A stretch of DNA of 34,130 nucleotides from a virus. Its lineage: Duplodnaviria; Heunggongvirae; Uroviricota; Caudoviricetes. The position numbers were made by a program, and so were the translations under genes. This document shows positions 3,042 through 29,169 of the stretch, piece after piece. Within the stretch, counting starts at the first letter, position 1; every line of letters begins with the position of its first letter. The notes beneath the pieces are model-generated. The model ran no database searches. It saw nothing but the letters and a program-made list of their open reading frames with translations, and had not been told where the DNA came from. The stretch is from IMG/VR virus record IMGVR_UViG_2859799533_000006; one strand, 5' to 3'.

Positions 3042-4169
3042 TTATTTGTGACATTGTGGTTGTTGTGCGACAGACATTGCTATTCGGCCCATATCCCAGA
3101 TAAAACCCGCCAGCTCACGTGCAACAGCAACAATTGTAATATTGACATTCTTTCCTTTGGCCTGAAGTTTTCGATACCTCTTACAAAGCCTGAGTTGAGC
3201 ATCCCATGCTCTGTCAATGACGGGGCGGGGTAAATTTTCCTGCCTTTTTTGTATTGCCGGACTGATGCGTGCCGGATGACGGTAACTCCACGCTGCCTCG
3301 ACCAATAGCTTTCTGGCATAGCTGTTTCCGGCTTTGGTAATGCTGCCCTGATGTCTGCTTCCACCCGATGAATATTCTGATGGCGTGATACCAAACCATG
3401 ACATCAGTTGTCGTGGATGTTCAAAACGGGTCAGATCACCCAGTTCAGAAATTAATCCAACCGCAGTAATAAACTGAATCCCTCGCATGGCTTGCAGCGC
3501 CTCTACTACCGGATACAGCCTCCATTCGGTAACGGCCTCCTTCAGGGCGGATTCCAGCCGTTCACATTGTGCCTGCCGGTCTTCTATTGTACGACGGTGT
3601 TCGTCAAAAGCTAATTGTCGCCAGGGACTTTCGAATGAGTATTTGCTGAGCCAGCGTCGGTGTGCAGGGCCCCAATCTGCTCGCCCGACATAATGGACCC
3701 CATGAACCAGAAGAAACGATTTCAGACGTTGCCTTGCATGCCGTAAATCATCGCGGGCAGATGCCCATGCCCGGGCCAAATCCCGGAATGCCTCATCTTC
3801 AATGCCGGGTACGTAGACAGCAGAAAGATCTCCTGCACGCAGTGAACGCACAAGTCTGATGGCATCACGGCGATCGGTTTTAACCCGCTCCCCCGGTTTT
3901 TTCGGGATAAGTGAGGGGGCGCAGACCATGCAGTCAAAACCGGATTTCACCAGCCGACGATAAAGTCCATAACCACAGGGCCCCGCTTCATAAACGATAC
4001 TGACCTGCGATGACTTTGACCTGAGACGTTTACAAAGATTCTGAATATCAGTAGGTGATGTGCCAATTTTACCCATCAGTTCAACAGGTTCTGAATTGAT
4101 AGCATAAGCGACAGTAATCGATTCTTTGTGAACATCTAACCCGACGTACAATGTGTTATTGTTGTTCAT
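3042..4169 (-). CDS. IS110-family transposase/recombinase
   Basis: 375 aa from MNNNNTLYVGLDVHKESITV (IS110-family N-terminal motif) with GGAGG 6 nt upstream of the ATG at 4169; the ORF track extends 16 codons further upstream to 4217. Confidence 0.85.
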   Translation of the reverse strand: MNNNNTLYVGLDVHKESITVAYAINSEPVELMGKIGTSPTDIQNLCKRLRSKSSQVSIVYEAGPCGYGLYRRLVKSGFDCMVCAPSLIPKKPGERVKTDRRDAIRLVRSLRAGDLSAVYVPGIEDEAFRDLARAWASARDDLRHARQRLKSFLLVHGVHYVGRADWGPAHRRWLSKYSFESPWRQLAFDEHRRTIEDRQAQCERLESALKEAVTEWRLYPVVEALQAMRGIQFITAVGLISELGDLTRFEHPRQLMSWFGITPSEYSSGGSRHQGSITKAGNSYARKLLVEAAWSYRHPARISPAIQKRQENLPRPVIDRAWDAQLRLCKRYRKLQAKGKNVNITIVAVARELAGFIWDMGRIAMSVAQQPQCHK

Positions 4170-4384
4170 GCTGGCCTCCGTGGTGGAAATACCGGGGTGT
4201 AGCAACAGCTCACCCATGCGGCTCTGACAACGATGTTAACCCGCGTTAAATATCCCACGTTGGCCAGCATCTGTCTCACGGAAAGTCATACTGCCTTACT
4301 ATCGTATTGATTGATCTGCATCAAATTAACGTAAAAGCAACTTCAGATAATACAAATCAGCAACACTGAATATGGGGAAACATT

Positions 4385-11158: not shown

Positions 11159-11235
11159 GTGGCGCGTTCTACTGTATTCGAACCAGTGACCGATTGCTTA
11201 GAAGGCAATTGCTCTGTCCGGCTGAGCTAACAACG
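11159..11235 (-). tRNA. argN: tRNA-Arg (anticodon UCU)
   Basis: Reverse complement gives a cloverleaf with anticodon loop CCTTCTAAG, T-loop TTCGAAT and CCA end; one acceptor-stem and one T-stem mismatch. Confidence 0.6.
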
Positions 11236-11251
11236 CAGGATACAGATAATG

Positions 11252-11326
11252 AACCGCCTTCGGGGACCCGAACTCCGCGCAACCAGCTTCGAAGGCTGGC
11301 GCTCTTTCCTGATGAGCTAATGGCGG
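11252..11326 (-). tRNA. tRNA-Arg-like (anticodon UCG), somewhat degenerate
   Basis: Hand-folded cloverleaf: D-arm gctc/gagc, anticodon stem ccagc/gctgg with loop CTTCGAA, T-loop TTCGGGT; acceptor 6/7 and T-stem 4/5 pairs; A58 replaced by G. Confidence 0.4.
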
Positions 11327-11333
11327 TATGTGA

Positions 11334-11409
11334 TGGTGGCCCTTGCTGGATTTGAACCAGCGACCTGGCGATTATGAGTCGCTCGCTCTCACCACTGAGC
11401 TAAAGGGCC
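11334..11409 (-). tRNA. ileZ: tRNA-Ile2 (anticodon CAU, ileZ-like)
   Basis: Reverse complement GGCCCTTTAGCTCAGTGGTGAGAGCGAGCGACTCATAATCGC...GGTTCAAATCCAGCAAGGGCCACCA closely resembles E. coli tRNA-Ile2; anticodon CAT. Confidence 0.8.
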
Positions 11410-11458: not shown

Positions 11459-12508
11459 TCAAACGATTAAATCCTGAACTTCCCTGACTGTCTGCTCAAA
11501 ACGTCCGGTCTCCAGTTCAACGCCAATCGCACGACGCCCGAGCGCCAGTGCCGCTTTTACCGTTGAACCTGAGCCCATAAAAAAATCTGCAACCTGGTCT
11601 CCCGGACGACTGCTCGCGTTGATTATCTGCTGCAACATTTCTGCCGGTTTTTCGCACGGATGTTTCCCTGGATAGTACTGCACCGGTTTATACGTCCACA
11701 CATCGGTGTACGGCACCTGCACCGTCACACCGAAATACCTCCGCAAATTTTTATATTCACTCAGCAGTTCCATATACTGCCGGCTCAGCTCACTGTATGT
11801 GCTGACCAGTTGGTAATGGGACTTTTCCAGTTCTCTCCGCTGATGTTTCTCTTCTGCCACCCGGGCAAACAGCGACTGTAATTTCAGATAATCGCTTTCG
11901 TTCGGTAGCTGCCACTGACTGGCACTGAACCAGTGCGACACCATGTTTTTCTTTCCTGTGGCATCTGCAATCTGTTTTGCCGTTATCCCCAGGGCAGCTC
12001 GCGCATCACGAAAGTAAGCAATCAGCGGGGCCATCACATTCTGTTTCAGTACCCTGCCCTTCGCCTCATAGCCATCATCTTTCGGGCGGTACGGCCCCTG
12101 ATAATGTTCCGCGAACAGAATGCGCTCTGTGGCGGGGAAATACGCCCGCAGGCTTTCCTTGTTGCATCCGTTCCAGCGTCCGGACGGCTTCGCTCAGATA
12201 ATATGGTTCAGCACACTGAAGCGTTCACGCATCATGATTTCGATATCAGATGCCAGGCGATGACCACAGAACAGGTAAAGACTTCCGGCAGGTTTCAGCA
12301 CCCGCCAGAACTGCGCCAGACACTGCTCCAGCCACTTCAGGTAATCATCGTCGCCCTTCCACTGGTTATCCCAGCCCTCAGGCTTCACTTTAAAGTACGG
12401 CGGGTCCGTGACTATCAGGTCAACAGAATTTTCGGGTAACGACCGGATAAATTCCAGGCAGTCGGCGTTGATTAACTCACAACTGGATATTTTTACAGTA
12501 TTAAGCAT
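11459..12508 (-). pseudogene. phage DNA N6-adenine methyltransferase (DPPY motif) interrupted by an in-frame TGA at 12194..12196
   Basis: N-terminal ORF has LIVTDPPYF; reading continues in the same frame across TGA (...SVLNHII-TGA-AKPSGRWNG...KQNVMAPLIAYFRD...), about 350 codons in total. Confidence 0.8.
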
Positions 12509-13082: not shown

Positions 13083-13556
13083 CTATCGCGTTACCCTCTT
13101 TAACTGCCGCTCCGCCCATGCCTCTTCAATGTCAAACCGAACCACCAACGTATCGTAAAAGCGTTTCACTGATTTTTTCCACGTATCAAGCGTGATAGCA
13201 CTCGTCACTTTGCATATGGCATTAAATGCCTCCGTTGATGGTAGTCTTTCACAGCCACGACCACCACAACGCTGGCAGTCTCTGATAACAGGCATACCAC
13301 GTTTTACCGACTCTTCACGATGAATGGCGACACCACGCCCACGGCAATCCTTACAGGCGGTGGAAACCTCACCCTTTCCGCCACACTCCGGACAGGCAAC
13401 TTTTACCACCTCCCTGACTTTTTTCCATTCTTCCCAGTAAGACGGATACACGCCTTTTGTGCACTTTGCCCACACTGGTGGCTTACCATCCGGATACTGG
13501 ATCTTGTTTGTAAAAACCTCGCTTTCAATAAATTTTTTCCGTGACAGCAGGGGCAC
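13083..13556 (-). CDS. Q: late-gene antiterminator Q (zinc-finger part); has only a GTG start and is probably the 3' part of a frameshifted longer Q gene
   Basis: CPECGGKG...CKDCRGRG zinc-finger motifs; sits upstream of tR' and the tRNA trio; no ATG start, and overlaps the upstream ORF by 154 nt. Confidence 0.6.
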   Translation of the reverse strand: MPLLSRKKFIESEVFTNKIQYPDGKPPVWAKCTKGVYPSYWEEWKKVREVVKVACPECGGKGEVSTACKDCRGRGVAIHREESVKRGMPVIRDCQRCGGRGCERLPSTEAFNAICKVTSAITLDTWKKSVKRFYDTLVVRFDIEEAWAERQLKRVTR

Positions 13557-13903
13557 TGTTTTTTGCTCGCCGCGCTACGGGCATAATCTTCAAACGCATA
13601 CGAAGCCATAATGCGCATCACTACCGGTTTTATTTCTGCCGGAAGTTTTCTCAACGCCGCCACACGATCGCACCGACTGAGTGCATAATCTGCCAGTAAT
13701 TCTGTTGCCCGCGCCCTGTCATTCATACTGATGCCCATTTTCCCCAGGAACGCAGAAAACCCCATCTCAGCCCGATTCTGTGTCATGCCCTGCGCGGCCA
13801 TCACATCAGTGATACTCAGCGCATCTTTTGACGTTGAGGCCGATGCATCGGTCAGGCTAGGGGATTTTGGGGAGTAGTATTTCGGTAAATCTTCCAGTTT
13901 CAT
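13403..13903 (-). CDS. ORF upstream of and overlapping Q; likely the N-terminal part of the same Q gene displaced by a 1-nt indel in an A6 run
   Basis: MKLEDLPKYYSPKSPSL...RIMASYAFEDYARSAASKKQ then low-plausibility tail; two A6 runs (plus-strand T6 at 13533..13538 and 13559..13564) lie at the frame switch. Confidence 0.4.
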   Translation of the reverse strand: MKLEDLPKYYSPKSPSLTDASASTSKDALSITDVMAAQGMTQNRAEMGFSAFLGKMGISMNDRARATELLADYALSRCDRVAALRKLPAEIKPVVMRIMASYAFEDYARSAASKKQCPCCHGKNLLKARFLQTRSSIRMVSHQCGQSAQKACIRLTGKNGKKSGRW

Positions 13904-14286: not shown

Positions 14287-15282
14287 TTACCCAAGCACGC
14301 CAGTTGCAAAGGCGTGATCAAGAAAACGAAAAATTAAATCAACCTGAGAACCATGCTTTTCTTCGAACGCCAGAGGATCCGCATGAAGCTCGTTGTGATG
14401 CTCCCGACACAGCGGTAGCGTGAAAATATCGTGAGATTTTGTCCCCATTCAGCCCTGACCATGACCAATCAGGTGATGGGGATCGTCGGCTGGCTTACCA
14501 CAACACGCACACGGCTGTGTCTTCACCCAGCGTGTGTATTTCTCGTTAACCCAGCGGCGACGTTTTGGGCGTAACATAAAAGACTCCGGCGACTCCGGAT
14601 CCACTTTCAGCGCCAGCACCTTTTTCGCCTTATCCTGGATGATGCTGGTGGCAGGAACCGAAGGCACAAGGTCACTTTCCCGGGTGACAGACGGCACAAC
14701 AGGCTTCGGTAATCTCAGTGCCTTACGGGCTGCACTTTCCGGTAAGGCATCCGCCAGGTCATTACGAATCAGCCACCAGCACAGTTCCGGCATTGTCACA
14801 ACGTGACTGTCATCAAAACCGAGATCCCGACGCACAACAGACAACACCCAGCGGGCACAGTTATCCGTTGCCATTGATTCCAGCCGTTCCGTGAACTGGT
14901 CACGGAGAAGATTGTCACAGTGCCAGCACAGACGGATTGCGCCTGGCGCGTGCCGCATTGTGGTCATGTTCTCGCTGTGCCAGTCGGAATGAGGCCACTG
15001 ACAGCCCTTTTCACGAAGTAACCAGCTCTCAAGGCATTCCACGCCACCAGCACGACGGATCACCGCCTCATGGCGGAACACGGCCCGAACGGCAGGATCA
15101 TCCGCCAGCGGTTGTGATGCTGCCGGAACGGCACCGCTGGCGAAAGATGAATAACGTTCCGGCTCAGGCTCCAGCAGGACACGCCCCTGCATAAACAGGG
15201 GCATCAGCTCTGAACCGGGCCTGAACAATACAATCCCCATTCGCGGGGCAATTTCAGGAGTCAACAATGCTCTCACGGTCAC
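14287..15282 (-). pseudogene. prophage DUF968-like protein with C-terminal HNH-like zinc motif, interrupted by an in-frame TGA at 14449..14451
   Basis: Frame reads ...CACCGKPADDPHHLIGHGQG-TGA-MGTKSHDIFTLPLCREHHNELHADPLAFEEKHG...-TAA; the Cys/His motif is split by the stop. Confidence 0.65.
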
Positions 15283-15328: not shown

Positions 15329-15586
15329 TCACGCAGTAAACTCCTTCACCAGCGTTTCAAACTGGCTTACCTGGCCTTCCAGTTCCGCCACGCAATCCAC
15401 CAGCTCATCCACCGCCTTTTGTGTACGGTGTTTTGCCTGCAGCAGATCACGAAGCGCCGGAGTAAGCTGCTTGCGGAGCGTATCTTTTGCCACGCTCGTT
15501 TTTTCCATCTGTTCAGCACAACGAAGCATCTCCTGCGCCTGCCGACGAAGTTGTTCCGGTGAAACAGTGATTGTTCTGTTGTTCAA
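15329..15586 (-). CDS. hypothetical coiled-coil protein
   Basis: 85-aa ORF with its start overlapping the helicase gene stop (ATGA); no recognisable motif. Confidence 0.4.
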
Positions 15587-16984
15587 AATAAACGCTCCGT
15601 TTTACTGCCCGACATGCGGTTATTGCTGTATCTGCGCGGATTGCCCGGCGTCATGGGTGTGGAAAGAACCCGGGCACTCTCCTGGTCCACAGGCAGAAAA
15701 TGTCCGTTATGAAAACGCCGGTAAATGGTCCCGAGCGTGCCATTACGCTGTTTCGTGATGTTGATTTCTGCTATGCCTCTGGCCTGAGTTTCCGGGTTGT
15801 ATACCTCATCCCTGTAAAGCATCAGAATGATGTCGGCATCCGCCTCGATTTCCCCGGAGTTTTTCAGGTCCGAGTTCATTGGGCGTTTATTGGGTCTGGA
15901 TTCCACGCCGCGGGAGAGCTGGCTCAGAGCAATCAGCGGAAAACCGCCGGATTTTGCCAGGCTTTTAAGTCCCTTTGAGATTTCCCCCACCGCAAGGTCG
16001 TGACGCCCCGTACTGCGGGTTTTAATCAGGCCGAGGTAATCGACCACCACCAGCGCCGTTTCCGGGTGTTTCATCCGGTGGTGCTTCGTGGTTGCACATA
16101 TCTCATCAATGGGTCAGGTTTGCCTGGTCCACCATCCAGATATTACGCCCCGTCATTCGTCCCACGCCCTGCGAGAAACGCGCCCAGTCTTCATCTTCAA
16201 AACGGGCAACAGACTTAAGACGGGATACCGGCATTCCACCGGCAGCAGACACCATACGTTCACCAATCTGGATGTTCGCCATCTCCATGGTGAACAGAAG
16301 CACGCCATGCCCCTGCTCAGTCACCTTGTCGATGATGTCCAGCGCAAGTTCGGTTTTCCCCATCGAAGGACGGGCGGCAATGAATACCAGGTCTCCGGGC
16401 TCCATACCGCCCGTTTTTGCGTCCAGTTCATCAATACCGGTCATCAGCGCCCTGGATTTCTCCAGTCCCTGATTGCGGCATTCAACACGGTCGACCACTT
16501 CCAGAAGGACATCATCAATGTGAACCGGCTGAATGACGCCCTTTCCGGTCGACAGTGAGGCCATCATGTTCTGCACATCCTTCAGGGCATCCTCGGCTGC
16601 TTCACAGGTATACGCATCACGTAAATTCTGTAATGCTTCAGTCAGTGTTTTTTCTGCATCGCGCAGTGCGGCATTGCGCCGCAACGCTGCGACATAGTGC
16701 TCCAGTGAAGACTTCACCCAGGTTTTGCGTCCGGTGTCGGTAATCACCGGGGCAAGTTCCGGCATCTCATTGCACAGCAGTACGGGGTCAATGACGCCGG
16801 ATATGCGAGCCTGTCTGCAAATCCCCGCGTAAATATCCCGGTACTGACGCACAAAAAATACATCCGCCGGAAGTGTGGCCAGAATATCCATCACTTCCGG
16901 ATCGGCCCCACGCAGAAAAAACGCACCGATGACAGCGCCTTCCAGGTCATCGTTACGCCATGCCGGGGTGTTCTGGCTGGTCAT
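15583..16984 (-). pseudogene. DnaB-like replicative helicase, frameshifted near 16106..16116
   Basis: N-terminal ORF ends ...[14 protein letters not shown]-stop; the +1 frame continues [31 protein letters not shown]... with RecA-fold motifs ([28 protein letters not shown]); switch at a C-run. Confidence 0.8.
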
Positions 16985-17868
16985 GCGGCAACACCTCCGA
17001 TACGAGAACGGTAGCTGGGCCAGTTAAACGACAACCAGTTGCGCCCGCCATCGGTGATCCTGTCGGCAATCCGGGGACTGATGAACGCCCACAATTCTTC
17101 CGGTGAAAGATTGCTGATCAAGATAGTTGGCAAAATACCCTCATACCGGGCATTGATAATTTCCTGCAAAATGGCCATTTCAGCCGCACTGCCAAACTGA
17201 ACGCCGACTTCGTCGACAATCAGCAAATCCAGTGACGCATAATGCTCAATGACGTCATCCGCTGTTTTTTCACTGTCATTCCGCCAGCAGTTTTTCACAG
17301 CCCGGGTAAGGCGCATCACGTCGGTGATCTCCACACTGGCCAGATAGTTACGGATGATGTGTTTTGCCATTGATACCGCCAGATGATTTTTCCCGGTACC
17401 GCAACTGCCGGTCATAACAAGACTGGTACCGTTCTCCAGCATATCTGGCCAGTTCTCCGCATAGCGGCGACAGGCCGCAAGATTTCTGGCTGCGTCAGGA
17501 TTAACCTCCAGATAATTATCAAACTCGCAGTCCCGAAAACGCAGAGCAATTCCGGCGTTATCAGTCAGTTCTTCCGCCTTGAGGGACGACAGTTCCATGG
17601 TCAAATAACTGGCCTCAGCGATCAAGCAGTCAGGGCAGCATGAAATTTTTTCTCTGTCCTCGCCATTACGATCGCTCCACACCAGTATATGCGTACGATA
17701 TTTACCGTGTTTTTCGCAATATCCGCGACCTTCACGCATCAGGCAGGAACGATAAGGCCATGGCTTTTCGCCCTTCTGAGCAAATGCAATCTCTGCCCGT
17801 AACTCATCCATTCGCGCCTGTAGTCTTGTTTGTTTCTCACGTTGGTCAATCGTCATCATCGCTGTCAC
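16981..17868 (-). CDS. DnaC-like helicase loader (AAA+ ATPase)
   Basis: 295 aa with Walker A TGSCGTGKNHLA and Walker B LLIVDEVG; overlaps the helicase start. Confidence 0.85.
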   Translation of the reverse strand: MTAMMTIDQREKQTRLQARMDELRAEIAFAQKGEKPWPYRSCLMREGRGYCEKHGKYRTHILVWSDRNGEDREKISCCPDCLIAEASYLTMELSSLKAEELTDNAGIALRFRDCEFDNYLEVNPDAARNLAACRRYAENWPDMLENGTSLVMTGSCGTGKNHLAVSMAKHIIRNYLASVEITDVMRLTRAVKNCWRNDSEKTADDVIEHYASLDLLIVDEVGVQFGSAAEMAILQEIINARYEGILPTILISNLSPEELWAFISPRIADRITDGGRNWLSFNWPSYRSRIGGVAA

Positions 17869-17869
17869 C

Positions 17870-18860
17870 TCAGAATGTCAATTTGTTACTGGATTTACCG
17901 AATTTGTCAGACATGGCTCCCAGGCCAGCCAGGACATCAACCTGTCGCTGTCGCCCACCTCCGTGAGCGGCTGGCTGTTGCCAGTAATCTTCGAAGTGAC
18001 GATCGGGTCCAAAGAACGTCGCAGCCTGCTTCACGAACTGTGTGCCGGTATTTCCTGTAGCACGTACCCAGGCGGCATACCGCTTCACGCCATCAAGCAT
18101 GGTCTCCGGTTTTATTCCTTCCCTGATACGGGCTTTCCAGGCTTTGAAGGCTGCTGACTTGGAATTGCCACCAGCACGTTTGGGATATTCCTGCCAGGCC
18201 TGTTCAAATTCCGGTGAATATTCCTGTCGGGCAGAACGCGCTGGCGCAGACGCGTCAGCGGATGCATCAATAGTGTTTTTAGTCTCCGTTGTAATCTCTG
18301 TAGTAATCTCTGTATTTGTATCAACATTCGGCGTATCCCTGTTCCGTTATGACGTCGGGGGTGTTCCGTTTTAACGTAATAGCTGTATCGCTGATTGCAT
18401 TATTGCTGTTACTTTCTGGCGAAACAGAAGAAGGTGTGGTGATGGCCGCAATTGCCTGTGGGTTGATCCCGACAAACAAAATATTGCTGCATTTCACCCC
18501 ATCGAGCATTTCCACCGTGCGTAAATCCAGAGTAATAAACCCTGCATCGCGCAGACGCTTCAGCGCATCTGCGGTTTCCCTTTTCCCGAAACCAAACTGC
18601 TCAGCAAACGCCTGGTAGCTTCTTTGCAGTTTGTCGCCCTGAAAACGCTTGCGATATCCCAGCAACGCTCCGGTGTGCTCATCCCTGACCTCTGTCGGGC
18701 GGTACCAGTAAACGATCTCTGAAAGCAGAGCGATAGCCGTCGCATCCGGACGCCCACTGGGTAGTCGAATATATTTCCACCAGTTCGCAGGTGTAACATT
18801 GCCGGAAATATTAATTTGACCAATAGCCATAACTTCCGGTGTGGGGGCGTAACGGCTCAT
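17870..18860 (-). pseudogene. phage replication initiator (O-like), frameshifted near 18337 at a GGG run; contains an in-gene tandem repeat
   Basis: N-terminal ORF 18321..18860 ends ...DVITEQGYAEC-stop; the +1 frame continues DTPNVDTNTEITTEITTE...EYSPEFEQAWQEYPKRAGGNSK...MLDGVKRYAAW... to 17870; 12-bp tandem gtaatctctgta x2 at 18291..18314. Confidence 0.6.
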
Positions 18861-19156
18861 ACAACCTCCTTCCGCGGCATGAGAATTGTGTAGCCACGCG
18901 CAGGTTGTAGTCTGGCTTTTGCATCAATAGTAAGCGTTGCAATTTTTCGGATATGAAGATAACCAGCTCTTTCCAGTGCCAGGGTTTCCCTGAATATCGC
19001 TTGCTTAGAACAACAGCAGAAATCAGCAAGCACCTGATGATCAATAACTCTCTCGCCTTCACCGTCTGAAGAACCCGACATCAAAACACGCAACATAATC
19101 AGGCGCTGAATCGGGTTATCGAAAGCACATCCGCACACAAACTGAAAACAGTTCAC
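18857..19156 (-). CDS. putative HTH regulatory protein, translationally coupled to the initiator gene
   Basis: 99-aa ORF with HTH-like segment SKQAIFRETLALERAGYLHI; stop overlaps the downstream start (ATGA). Confidence 0.45.
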   Translation of the reverse strand: MNCFQFVCGCAFDNPIQRLIMLRVLMSGSSDGEGERVIDHQVLADFCCCSKQAIFRETLALERAGYLHIRKIATLTIDAKARLQPARGYTILMPRKEVV

Positions 19157-23798: not shown

Positions 23799-24689
23799 TC
23801 AGGCTGCCAGATCATCGTTTCCGATGGAAGCATAATAAGCTTTTTCTGCTTCTGCCGGAGGAGTATGGCCCAGCCTTTCCAGCAATCGTCGATTGTTATA
23901 CCAGTCCACCCACGTGAGTGTGGCCAGTTCCACTTCTGCACGGTTTTTCCAGCTCTTACGGTGTATTACCTCCGCTTTGTAAAGACCATTGATGCTCTCC
24001 GCCATCGCGTTGTCATACGAGTCGCCTGTACTTCCTGTTGATGCCAGTAATCCGGCTTCCTTAAGCCGCTGTGTGTAGGCCAGCGATACATACTGAGAAC
24101 CTTTATCACTGTGATGGACCGTGCCGGACGGTCGACGGGCCCATAACGCCTGCTCCAGAGCATCCAGCACGAATGTCGTTTCCATGGACGATGAGACCCG
24201 CCACCCCACGATGTATCCGGCAAACACATCAATGATGAACGCCACATAGACGAAGCCCTGCCATGTGCTGACGTAAGTAAAATCAGCCACCCACAGCTGG
24301 TCAGGTCGTTCTGCCACGAACTGACGGTTTACGCGGTCGCCTGCGGCAACGGCTTTCCGGCTGATGGTCGTACGGACCTTTTTACCCCGGAGAACACCGG
24401 CAAGTCCCATAACCGCCATGAGACGTGCCACAGTGCATCTGGCCACTCTGATACCTTCCCGTAACAACTGACGCCAGACTTTACGCACACCGTATACCTG
24501 ATGATTCCCATCGTATACGCGCAGTATCTCTTTCTTCAGCCAGTCATCGCGCTGCGCACGGGCACTGCGTTTATCAGGATGATGTCGCTGTTGCTGACAG
24601 TGGTAATACGTTGACGGGGCAATATGCAGTTCACTGCATACCGGTCCGACCCCGTACAGCTTACGCAGCTTATCCAGCAGTGGCATCAC
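23799..24689 (-). CDS. IS629 transposase OrfB (DDE integrase domain)
   Basis: 296-aa ORF with the IS3-family catalytic region; overlaps orfA in the arrangement for a -1 frameshift fusion. Confidence 0.9.
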
Positions 24690-25012: not shown

Positions 25013-25066
25013 CCTGTTTACCTCTTTCTCAGGAAGTTTAGTCTCCAGGATTCCCGGGGCGGTTCA

Positions 25067-25667
25067 AACCATTATCCGTCAGCCACTCCACTGGAGACGA
25101 CGGAAGATCGTTGCCGAAGCGGCGTTCCACCGCTCCCAGCATGACGTCCTGTACTGTTTCACTGTTGAAGCCGCCGGTAGTCACCGCCCAGTGCAGTGCC
25201 TCACGATCACAGCAGTCCAGCGCGAACGTGACACGCAGTCTCTCTCCGTTATCACAGCAGAACTCGAACCCGTCAGAGCACCATCGCTGATTGCTTTCTT
25301 TCACGGCCACTCTGCCTGTATGTGCCCGTTTCGATGGCGGTACAGCAGGTTTTCGCTCAAGCAACAGCGCATTCTGGCGCATGATCCGGTAAACACGTTT
25401 GGCATTGATCGCAGGCATACCATCAAGTTCTGCCTGTCTGCGAAGCAGCGCCCATACCCGACGATAACCATACGTGGGCAGCTCTCCGATAACATGGTGT
25501 ATACGGAGAAGCACATCCGTATCATCAGTGTGACGACTGCGGCGGCCATCCATCCAGTCATCGGTTCGTCTGAGAATGACGTGCAACTGCGCACGCGACA
25601 CCCGGAGACAACGGCTGACTAAGCTTACTCCCCATCCCCGGGCAATAAGGGCGCGTGCGCTATCCAC
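25067..25667 (-). pseudogene. insD: IS2 transposase InsD, 5' fragment
   Basis: ORF 25038..25667 ([21 protein letters not shown]...) runs into the IS629 end at 25066. Confidence 0.85.
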
Positions 25668-28278: not shown

Positions 28279-29169
28279 TCAGGCTGCCAGATCATCGTTT
28301 CCGATGGAAGCATAATAAGCTTTTTCTGCTTCTGCCGGAGGAGTATGGCCCAGCCTTTCCAGCAATCGTCGATTGTTATACCAGTCCACCCACGTGAGTG
28401 TGGCCAGTTCCACTTCTGCACAGTTTTTCCAGCTCTTACGGTGTATTACCTCCGCTTTGTAAAGACCATTGATGCTCTCCGCCATCGCGTTGTCATACGA
28501 GTCGCCTGTACTTCCTGTTGATGCCAGTAATCCGGCTTCCTTAAGCCGCTGTGTGTAGGCCAGCGATACATACTGAGAACCTTTATCACTGTGATGGACC
28601 GTGCCGGACGGTCGACGGGCCCATAACGCCTGCTCCAGAGCATCCAGCACGAATGTCGTTTCCATGGACGATGAGACCCGCCACCCCACGATGTATCCGG
28701 CAAACACATCAATGATGAACGCCACATAGACGAAGCCCTGCCATGTGCTGACGTAAGTAAAATCAGCCACCCACAGCTGGTCAGGTCGTTCTGCCACGAA
28801 CTGACGGTTTACGCGGTCGCCTGCGGCAACGGCTTTCCGGCTGATGGTCGTACGGACCTTTTTACCCCGGAGAACACCGGCAAGTCCCATAACCGCCATG
28901 AGACGTGCCACAGTGCATCTGGCCACTCTGATACCTTCCCGTAACAACTGACGCCAGACTTTACGCACACCGTATACCTGATGATTCCCATCGTATACGC
29001 GCAGTATCTCTTTCTTCAGCCAGTCATCGCGCTGCGCACGGGCACTGCGTTTATCAGGATGATGTCGCTGTTGCTGACAGTGGTAATACGTTGACGGGGC
29101 AATATGCAGTTCACTGCATACCGGTCCGACCCCGTACAGCTTACGCAGCTTATCCAGCAGTGGCATCAC
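28279..29169 (-). CDS. IS629 transposase OrfB
   Basis: Identical to the copy 1 OrfB except one residue (Cys for Arg in SWKNCAEVE). Confidence 0.9.

Follow-up and report, generated by a model that had tools for sequence, protein, structure and literature searches.

A broken phage replication initiator and a conserved tandem 12-mer in its linker-coding DNA, a candidate in-gene origin

Why does a phage replication initiator change reading frame in mid-gene, and what is the short tandem repeat that lies beside the break? These questions are raised by IMG/VR record IMGVR_UViG_2859799533_000006, a 34,130-nt stretch of Caudoviricetes DNA (hereafter the window), where a first-pass annotation had joined two open reading frames into one frameshifted initiator and had suggested that a neighbouring 12-bp repeat coincides with origin iterons. 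The DNA involved is a replication module, now dead, of a lambdoid prophage that has decayed and is riddled with IS elements. Taking all the evidence together, we consider it probable that this module contains a twice-broken initiator whose linker DNA holds an in-gene origin, composed of iterons and a 12-mer core.

The initiator gene and its two deletions

The gene in question is a phage replication-initiator pseudogene of the replisome-organiser type (17870..18860, minus strand), which is 991 nt long here and derives from an ancestral coding sequence of 993 nt and 330 aa. Its first part, ORF A (18321..18860, minus strand, 179 aa), encodes an N-terminal winged-helix domain, part of a linker and an out-of-frame tail, DVITEQGYAEC, that ends at a TGA at 18323-18321 on the minus strand. 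The remainder, which keeps to the ancestral frame of the C-terminus (17870..18336, minus strand), encodes the rest of the linker, including the peptide TEITTEIT, followed by the C-domain. This second frame is open from just past a TAA (18349-18347) to 17870 and reads ...DTNTEITTEITTETKN... / ...RNRDTPNVDTNTEITTEITTETKNTIDAS..., with no start codon in the downstream gene part before 18100.

Comparison with relatives established the identity of the gene. Close relatives in complete E. coli genomes (L001 and L002 among them) carry a single 993-bp, 330-aa CDS at the place of the initiator, the uninterrupted ORF is found in more than 220 complete E. coli genomes, and the intact protein matches phrog_270 ('replication initiation protein') from end to end (residues 2-329, E 5e-78). 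On these comparisons, ORF A and the downstream frame are the two parts of one broken initiator gene, as the first-pass annotation had proposed; the contrary case of two independent genes fails on the single ORF of those genomes. Weaker matches linked the intact protein to PHROG 'O-like' families (phrog_391, 6e-7; phrog_678, 8e-5). Searches of Pfam with either half of the broken gene and of NCBIfam with the intact protein returned no match, and the N-terminal domain had no profile match to the lambda O family (Pfam Phage_rep_O), to which the gene was not assigned. A profile search against PDB sequences gave nothing beyond a marginal GntR-type helix-turn-helix match, while a fold search placed the N-domain among generic winged helices and picked out no specific initiator family.

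An AlphaFold model of the intact initiator, built from 62 homologues, predicts a confident N-terminal domain (residues 1-145; a winged helix with an inserted beta hairpin), a disordered linker that includes TEITTEIT (146-211; pLDDT <50) and a confident, helical C-domain (212-299). Over residues 213-330 the protein shows 100% identity to the C-terminus of the 'replication protein O' from Escherichia phage PhiR49_2; in Stx phages identity is 92%, and the matching C-domain there comes after a different N-domain. The C-terminal domain appears to be swapped as a module with other initiators. The initiator is followed by genes for a DnaC/IstB-like loader and then a DnaB-like helicase. At its other end, a 99-aa ORF on the minus strand (18857-19156) overlaps the initiator start. 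It resembles the N-terminal portion of phrog_4617 ('replication initiation protein'; E 2e-29), has a weak O-like match too, and may encode another small winged-helix protein belonging to the replication module. Downstream of the array, the linker of two E. coli relatives (L007 and L091) is without 6 nt, GCGCCA (Ala-Pro), equivalent to window positions 18238-18247, which represents a second in-frame length polymorphism of the linker.

Alignment to intact relatives revealed two bases missing from the window gene. Deletion 1, the primary frameshift, shortens a run of six C on the coding strand to five (plus-strand G5, 18357..18361), where intact genes have six; deletion 2 shortens a coding-strand run of four G to three (plus-strand CCC, 18337..18339), where all relatives have four. 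The ancestral reading between them (RRHNGTG) occupies the third frame here, so that the ancestral ...KRNTPRRHNGTGDTPNVDTNTEITTEIT... runs through all three frames in the window. The GGG run that had been named as the point of the frame switch is therefore one of two lesions, and the other, the C run at 18357-18361, lies outside the region originally described; a single shift joining the two frames is confined to 18346-18324, which accounts for the choice of the GGG run.

The two deletions differ in their distribution. Neither occurs in any of the 222 complete E. coli genomes with the region, in which the best identity, 98.5%, corresponds to two gaps, and the exact 179-aa ORF A protein is found on one contig only in the whole collection, CP026866.1. 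The C-run deletion is common to a sister assembly, CP026797.1 (L092), and to separate assemblies (L093-L098), five of which are Logan assemblies of SRA runs and the other another genome; alone, this deletion is also found in a cluster of 21 protein variants. CP026797.1 is 99.76% identical to the window and over 5.75 kb differs from it by one SNP, an intact G4 run and a single 12-mer copy where the window has two. The G-run deletion is confined to the window assembly, being absent from CP026797.1 and from every other relative. Because the C-run deletion is present in the sister assembly and in separate Logan assemblies, it is real and inherited, and the initiator is therefore broken whatever the state of the G run. 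By its distribution, the C-run deletion would be the older, inherited lesion, and the G-run deletion would have arisen later, in an already dead gene, or else reflect an assembly error.

Signs of decay extend well beyond the initiator. The DnaC/IstB-like helicase loader (16981..17868, minus strand) has lost, in frame and near 17792, one of the two copies of a 21-bp direct repeat found in relatives (7 aa), and the DnaB-like replicative helicase (15583..16984, minus strand), one 466-aa protein in relatives, is split into 292 and 163 aa by a 1-bp insertion (GG to GGG, 16111-16113); both changes are common to CP026797.1. Genes for antiterminator Q, a DUF968 protein and a DNA methyltransferase (13403-13903, 14449-15282 and 11459-12037) are apparently shortened relative to a related prophage, with homopolymer indels at 13533, 12864 and 11648. 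An IS66-family transposase, an IS110-family transposase and IS3-type ORFs lie at 1158-2750, 3042-4217, 23799-24689, 25038-25667 and 28279-29169, the IS3-type (rve) ORFs comprising two of equal length (296 aa) with the same Pfam domains plus a truncated third. Several stretches of the window have matches in thousands of chromosomes and plasmids of E. coli. The late-regulatory region also contains three tRNA genes (Arg-tct, Arg-tcg and Met/Ile-cat; 11160-11409), as it does in related prophages.

Could the gene nonetheless be intact, and its frameshift a homopolymer artefact of sequencing or assembly? Both lesions are 1-bp homopolymer losses, about nine homopolymer indels separate the window from one relative over ~17 kb, and both the single-contig occurrence of the 179-aa product and the private G-run loss point the same way. 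The C-run deletion, however, is present in the sister genome and in the separate assemblies, including those five built by Logan from SRA runs, as is the helicase frameshift in the sister genome, and an intact gene is very unlikely. We give even less credence to the idea that both ORFs are functional, whether through programmed ribosomal frameshifting, as independent genes or as a homopolymer phase-variable switch. Several other frameshifted alleles of the initiator exist in public data, and the C5 allele is present in backgrounds 4-5% apart, which could mean recurrence at a hot spot; but homologues have a single ORF and do not conserve the two-frame layout, no Rfam frameshift element was found at the break site, and the ancestral protein would need two separate shifts. 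The late start codon at 18100, runs of six and four bases that are short for phase variation, and the broken helicase next door also speak against functional ORFs. The initiator frameshift is ordinary prophage decay, that is, pseudogenisation.

The 12-mer array and its conservation

The repeat beside the break is an exact one: GTAATCTCTGTA occurs as two tandem copies (18291-18302 and 18303-18314), the only exact copies in the 34-kb window, in an arrangement well beyond chance. On the minus strand the array (18283..18314) reads TACAGAGATTAC twice (18314..18291), followed by a degenerate third unit, AACGGAGACTAA, and Tandem Repeats Finder extends the tandem over the same interval with 2.7 copies. 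The description of an in-gene 12-bp tandem repeat encoding TEITTEIT in the second frame was accurate. Copy number in close relatives is 1, 2, 3 or 5; a search for degenerate copies found, besides the third unit, a two-mismatch match (10/12), TACAGCTATTAC, at 18376..18387 on the minus strand, which may be due to chance; and the array is the most AT-rich part of the gene (GC 0.35-0.38, with the minimum at 18260-18349, versus ~0.52 for the gene). At 62-65% AT, this stretch is modest in the window; across the family, the mean is 68-72% AT over the 45 nt from the array start, versus 47-53% just upstream. Over 18283-18387 there was no Rfam match, and single-strand folding gave no stable structure (z = +0.61), with the array unpaired. 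DnaA boxes and IHF sites were considered by eye and rejected, as the sequences do not fit.

In protein alignments, the pattern T-x-T-E-x-T-T persists amid an otherwise variable linker in homologues down to ~40% identity, which come from Salmonella, Serratia, Yersinia, Proteus, Arsenophonus and Marinomonas. Using two N-domain peptides as the only bait, we collected 80 loci from a species-level genome collection, spanning Proteobacteria, Firmicutes, Cyanobacteria, Chloroflexota, Rickettsiales and others. Across these loci the motif DNA is nearly identical, with the form (A/T)AT ACA GAG A(T/A)T ACT ACA (G/A)AG A(T/A)T AC(T/A). Scanning both strands of ~0.9 Mb for matches of at least 19/25, we found the motif in 64 of the 80 loci, only at 476-690 nt into the gene and on the gene strand, and nowhere else; the other 16 homologues have no good match. 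The first-pass annotation had named a repeat that is absent from homologues, or variable in them without pattern, as the outcome that would count against it, and the distant homologues reveal the opposite, a repeat in a fixed place.

Codon choice distinguishes selection on the DNA from selection on the peptide. Among 32 non-redundant lineages with less than 70% N-domain identity, and with expectations taken from each gene's own codon usage, the motif threonines are encoded by ACA in 31/32 cases at one position (11.4 expected) and in 20/20 at another (7.7 expected), and by ACT in 18/27 (5.0 expected); glutamate is encoded by GAG in 21/22 (7.8 expected), lysine by AAG in 8/8 (3.2 expected) and isoleucine by ATT in 15/15 (6.9 expected). 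Invariant N-domain residues in the same loci served as a control and use random codons (Tyr, 15 TAC and 17 TAT; Arg, five codons; Pro, four), which implies that synonymous sites are saturated and that the motif is held at the nucleotide level. Some loci even translate the motif DNA in another frame, as YREYNRD or DRDY. By this codon evidence, the 12-mer is constrained as a nucleic acid rather than as a peptide. Low mid-gene variability among E. coli alleles (~3% versus ~15% in the flanks) was set aside as evidence of constraint, since mosaic recombination could produce such a pattern. The recognition helix of the winged-helix domain varies among lineages that keep the 12-mer, with no simple pairing, and only one small clade, with LRQ instead of LQR in this helix, has a degenerate motif.

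The motif is also widespread beyond the loci found by bait. At least 120 IMG/VR contigs match ATACAGAGAWTACTACAGAGAWTAC exactly, where ~0.001 would be expected by chance, and among the 80 IMG/VR loci listed the longest ORF over the motif is mostly ~280-390 aa, being shorter where cut or broken. It occurs in 128 sequenced phages, whose hosts or names include Acinetobacter, Bacillus, Staphylococcus, Klebsiella, Stx phages, Pseudomonas, Erwinia, Xanthomonas, Vibrio, Geobacillus and Synechococcus; in the annotated phage matches listed, it lies under genes called initiator, 'O', DnaD-like or replisome organiser, with few exceptions. Overall, the 12-mer ranges from Enterobacterales to Firmicutes, Acinetobacter, Rickettsiales and cyanobacteria. 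Carriers belong to at least two N-domain families, the second of which (PHROGs 9773 and 678, 'replication initiation O-like') has its own iterons, often palindromic and 23 bp apart, followed directly by the same array. In one member of this second family (L102, an IMG/VR contig with a 302-aa ORF), an HNH endonuclease domain lies between the winged helix and the array. A search of full-text literature found no paper printing the motif or the peptides TEITTEIT and TENTTENT, only unrelated primer matches; the older subscription literature on phage origins was outside its scope.

Iteron-like boxes and a candidate origin

Upstream of the array lie repeats of a different kind. Box 1 (18362..18377, minus strand; coding strand ACGTTAAAACGGAACA), which the degenerate 12-mer at 18376..18387 abuts, is 14/16 identical to box 2 (18340..18355, minus strand; coding strand ACGTCATAACGGAACA) and is read in a different frame, the shared DNA encoding TLKRNT in box 1 and RHNGT in box 2. 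A weak possible third box, ATACGCCGAAT (18326..18336, minus strand), follows 22 nt after box 2 and 21 nt before the array and shares a TACG core only, so the window contains just two clear boxes plus this one. The two clear boxes are spaced by 23 nt in intact genes and by 22 nt in the window. Both deletions sit in the homopolymer spacers, one after box 1 and one after box 2, and the presumed origin spacing is therefore also 1 bp shorter at each. Together, array and boxes correspond to residues 160-195, within the low-confidence linker (pLDDT <50) between the two confident domains.

Such boxes are a general feature of the family. In the 170 nt before the array, the 32 lineages yielded 81 direct-repeat diagonals, versus 5 and 13 in equal-length controls from the N-domain and the downstream region. 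Repeat spacings cluster at 22-23 nt (28 cases), 44-46 nt (29), 66-69 nt (11) and 89-90 nt (6) and are uniform modulo 3, out of codon phase, which indicates repeats of DNA rather than of peptide. In Xenorhabdus, for example, TACGTTGAA occurs at offsets 68, 90 and 134, with the middle copy in another frame. The direct repeats always precede the 12-mer array at intervals of ~22-23 bp, and their sequence is lineage-specific; from the sequences compared, the family would combine lineage-specific iterons with a universal 12-mer array. The suggestion that the repeat coincides with origin iterons holds in part: the 12-mer does belong to an apparent in-gene origin, but it is probably not itself an iteron, and the iteron-like elements are the boxes at 18377..18340.

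These observations are most consistent with linker-coding DNA that carries the phage replication origin, a reading suggested by a layout like that of ori-lambda and of SPP1 oriL, both of them proven origins. The two or three lineage-specific boxes, 22-23 bp apart, would be iterons presumably bound by the winged-helix domain. The tandem array of TACAGAGATTAC that comes after them would take the place of an AT-rich unwinding tract, serving as the core of duplex opening or helicase entry and acting either through some conserved region of the initiator or through a host factor that is universal. Recruitment of the adjacent DnaC-like loader and DnaB-like helicase would presumably fall to the C-domain. 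The analysis demonstrates what the gene is, its two deletions, the constraint on the nucleotides, and the spacing and position of the repeats; binding, unwinding and origin activity we infer from layout and conservation. In the window, this initiator was inactivated by the inherited loss from the C6 run and later lost a base from the G4 run, unless the latter loss is an assembly error.

Two other accounts of the array were weighed against an origin. In one, the 12-mer is a TEIT peptide repeat made by slippage in a flexible linker, neutral or selected as protein, with no role as DNA. Copy number changes in in-frame steps of 12 nt, T-x-T-E-x-T-T is invariant in protein alignments and most loci use the same reading frame, all as a peptide repeat would have it; but its synonymous positions are fixed across the 32 deeply diverged lineages, whereas codon use is random at invariant residues elsewhere, GAG and AAG are retained even in AT-rich Firmicutes, some loci read the motif DNA in another frame, and the peptide falls within a predicted disordered segment. 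A purely peptide repeat is thus very improbable. Somewhat more credible, though still unlikely, is a nucleotide-level role other than an origin, either an mRNA signal or a junction for the exchange of N-terminal (specificity) and C-terminal (loader-recruiting) modules. The array is always on the transcribed strand of a gene, and the 'O' gene of the Stx1a-converting phage Stx1_132418 joins another N-domain and other iterons to the same C-domain, with identity beginning after the array. The RNA version has against it the lack of an Rfam match and of a stable fold (z = +0.6), with the array unpaired; the junction version leaves the adjacent 22-23 bp repeats unexplained, and phyla incapable of homologous exchange still conserve the motif. 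Against both stands the layout of iterons plus AT-rich DNA, which matches that of proven origins (PMC7466680, PMC6316719).

An exchange junction is compatible with an origin and may be an additional role of the same DNA. In Stx1_132418 (L219, CDS 1049-1957), identity to the window gene starts right after the array (18283-18314), and the N-domain and iterons upstream of it are unrelated to those of the window gene; by this alignment, the array marks a module-exchange boundary between the two genes. We advance only tentatively, as a possibility short of even odds, the broader proposal that the ATACAGAGAWTAC-TACAGAGAWTAC tandem 12-mer is a previously undescribed, phylum-spanning origin core, placed after lineage-specific iterons in winged-helix replisome organisers that Pfam does not model, and acting both as a duplex-opening or helicase-entry site and as a module-swap junction. 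If true, sequence on its own would suffice to find the origins of hundreds of temperate phages and prophages, among them Stx, Staphylococcus, Bacillus, Acinetobacter and Klebsiella phages, whose initiators have no Pfam family. It is unusual for a ~25-nt DNA motif within a coding region to stay constant from phylum to phylum, and its constancy points to a shared, uncharacterised recognition step in the initiation of phage replication; the array would also explain why these initiator genes are mosaic exactly at the linker. As a nucleotide element that is pan-bacterial, and not a local iteron, the 12-mer would be more interesting than was first proposed.

Comparison with known systems

Origins within initiator genes are already known, and the features of lambda- and SPP1-type in-gene origins, namely a position within the initiator gene, spaced iterons and an adjoining AT-rich region, are all found here. 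Several RepA_N origins also lie inside repA. In bacterial oriC, AT-rich 13-mers or DnaA-trios come directly after the initiator-binding sites, where the duplex opens; the array resembles these by position only, as a short tandem repeat after initiator sites, and differs in sequence and in class of initiator. RepA_N initiators (pSK41, pTZ2162 and PLE RepA) bind iterons through a winged-helix, DnaD-like N-terminal domain and have a host-specific C-terminal domain (PMC7145576). The window initiator likewise has a predicted winged-helix N-terminal domain but, unlike these proteins, has no Pfam RepA_N match.

The likeness to ori-lambda is closer. To our knowledge, a 12-mer conserved across phyla is not a feature of ori-lambda, and the window family differs in having such a tandem instead of an AT-rich tract. 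The partners of the window initiator are a DnaC-like loader and a phage DnaB-like helicase rather than lambda P, and its N-domain is without a Pfam match and hence does not match Phage_rep_O. In contrast, its C-terminal domain is 92-100% identical to that of proteins annotated 'O' in Stx phages and PhiR49_2. Ori-lambda lies in mid-gene O and consists of iterons plus an AT-rich tract, the difference between four and six iterons adding 13 aa to O (PMC7466680). As proposed for the window, the origin occupies linker-coding DNA between an N-terminal DNA-binding and a C-terminal recruiting domain, with direct repeats about two helical turns apart that vary in number in frame and are followed by the AT-rich tract in the direction of transcription (PMC7466680, PMC6022878).

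SPP1 oriL offers the second parallel. It lies inside gene 38 and combines direct repeats with an AT-rich unwinding element, in a system of the replisome organiser gp38, the gp39 loader and the gp40 DnaB-type helicase (PMC6316719). The window appears to share this three-gene module of organiser, loader and DnaB-type helicase and, by analogy, an origin within the organiser gene, where direct repeats, known in SPP1 to be bound by the organiser, adjoin the AT-rich element. In keeping with this parallel, a Bacillus phage homologue of the window N-domain is annotated 'replisome organizer and ori-binding protein'.
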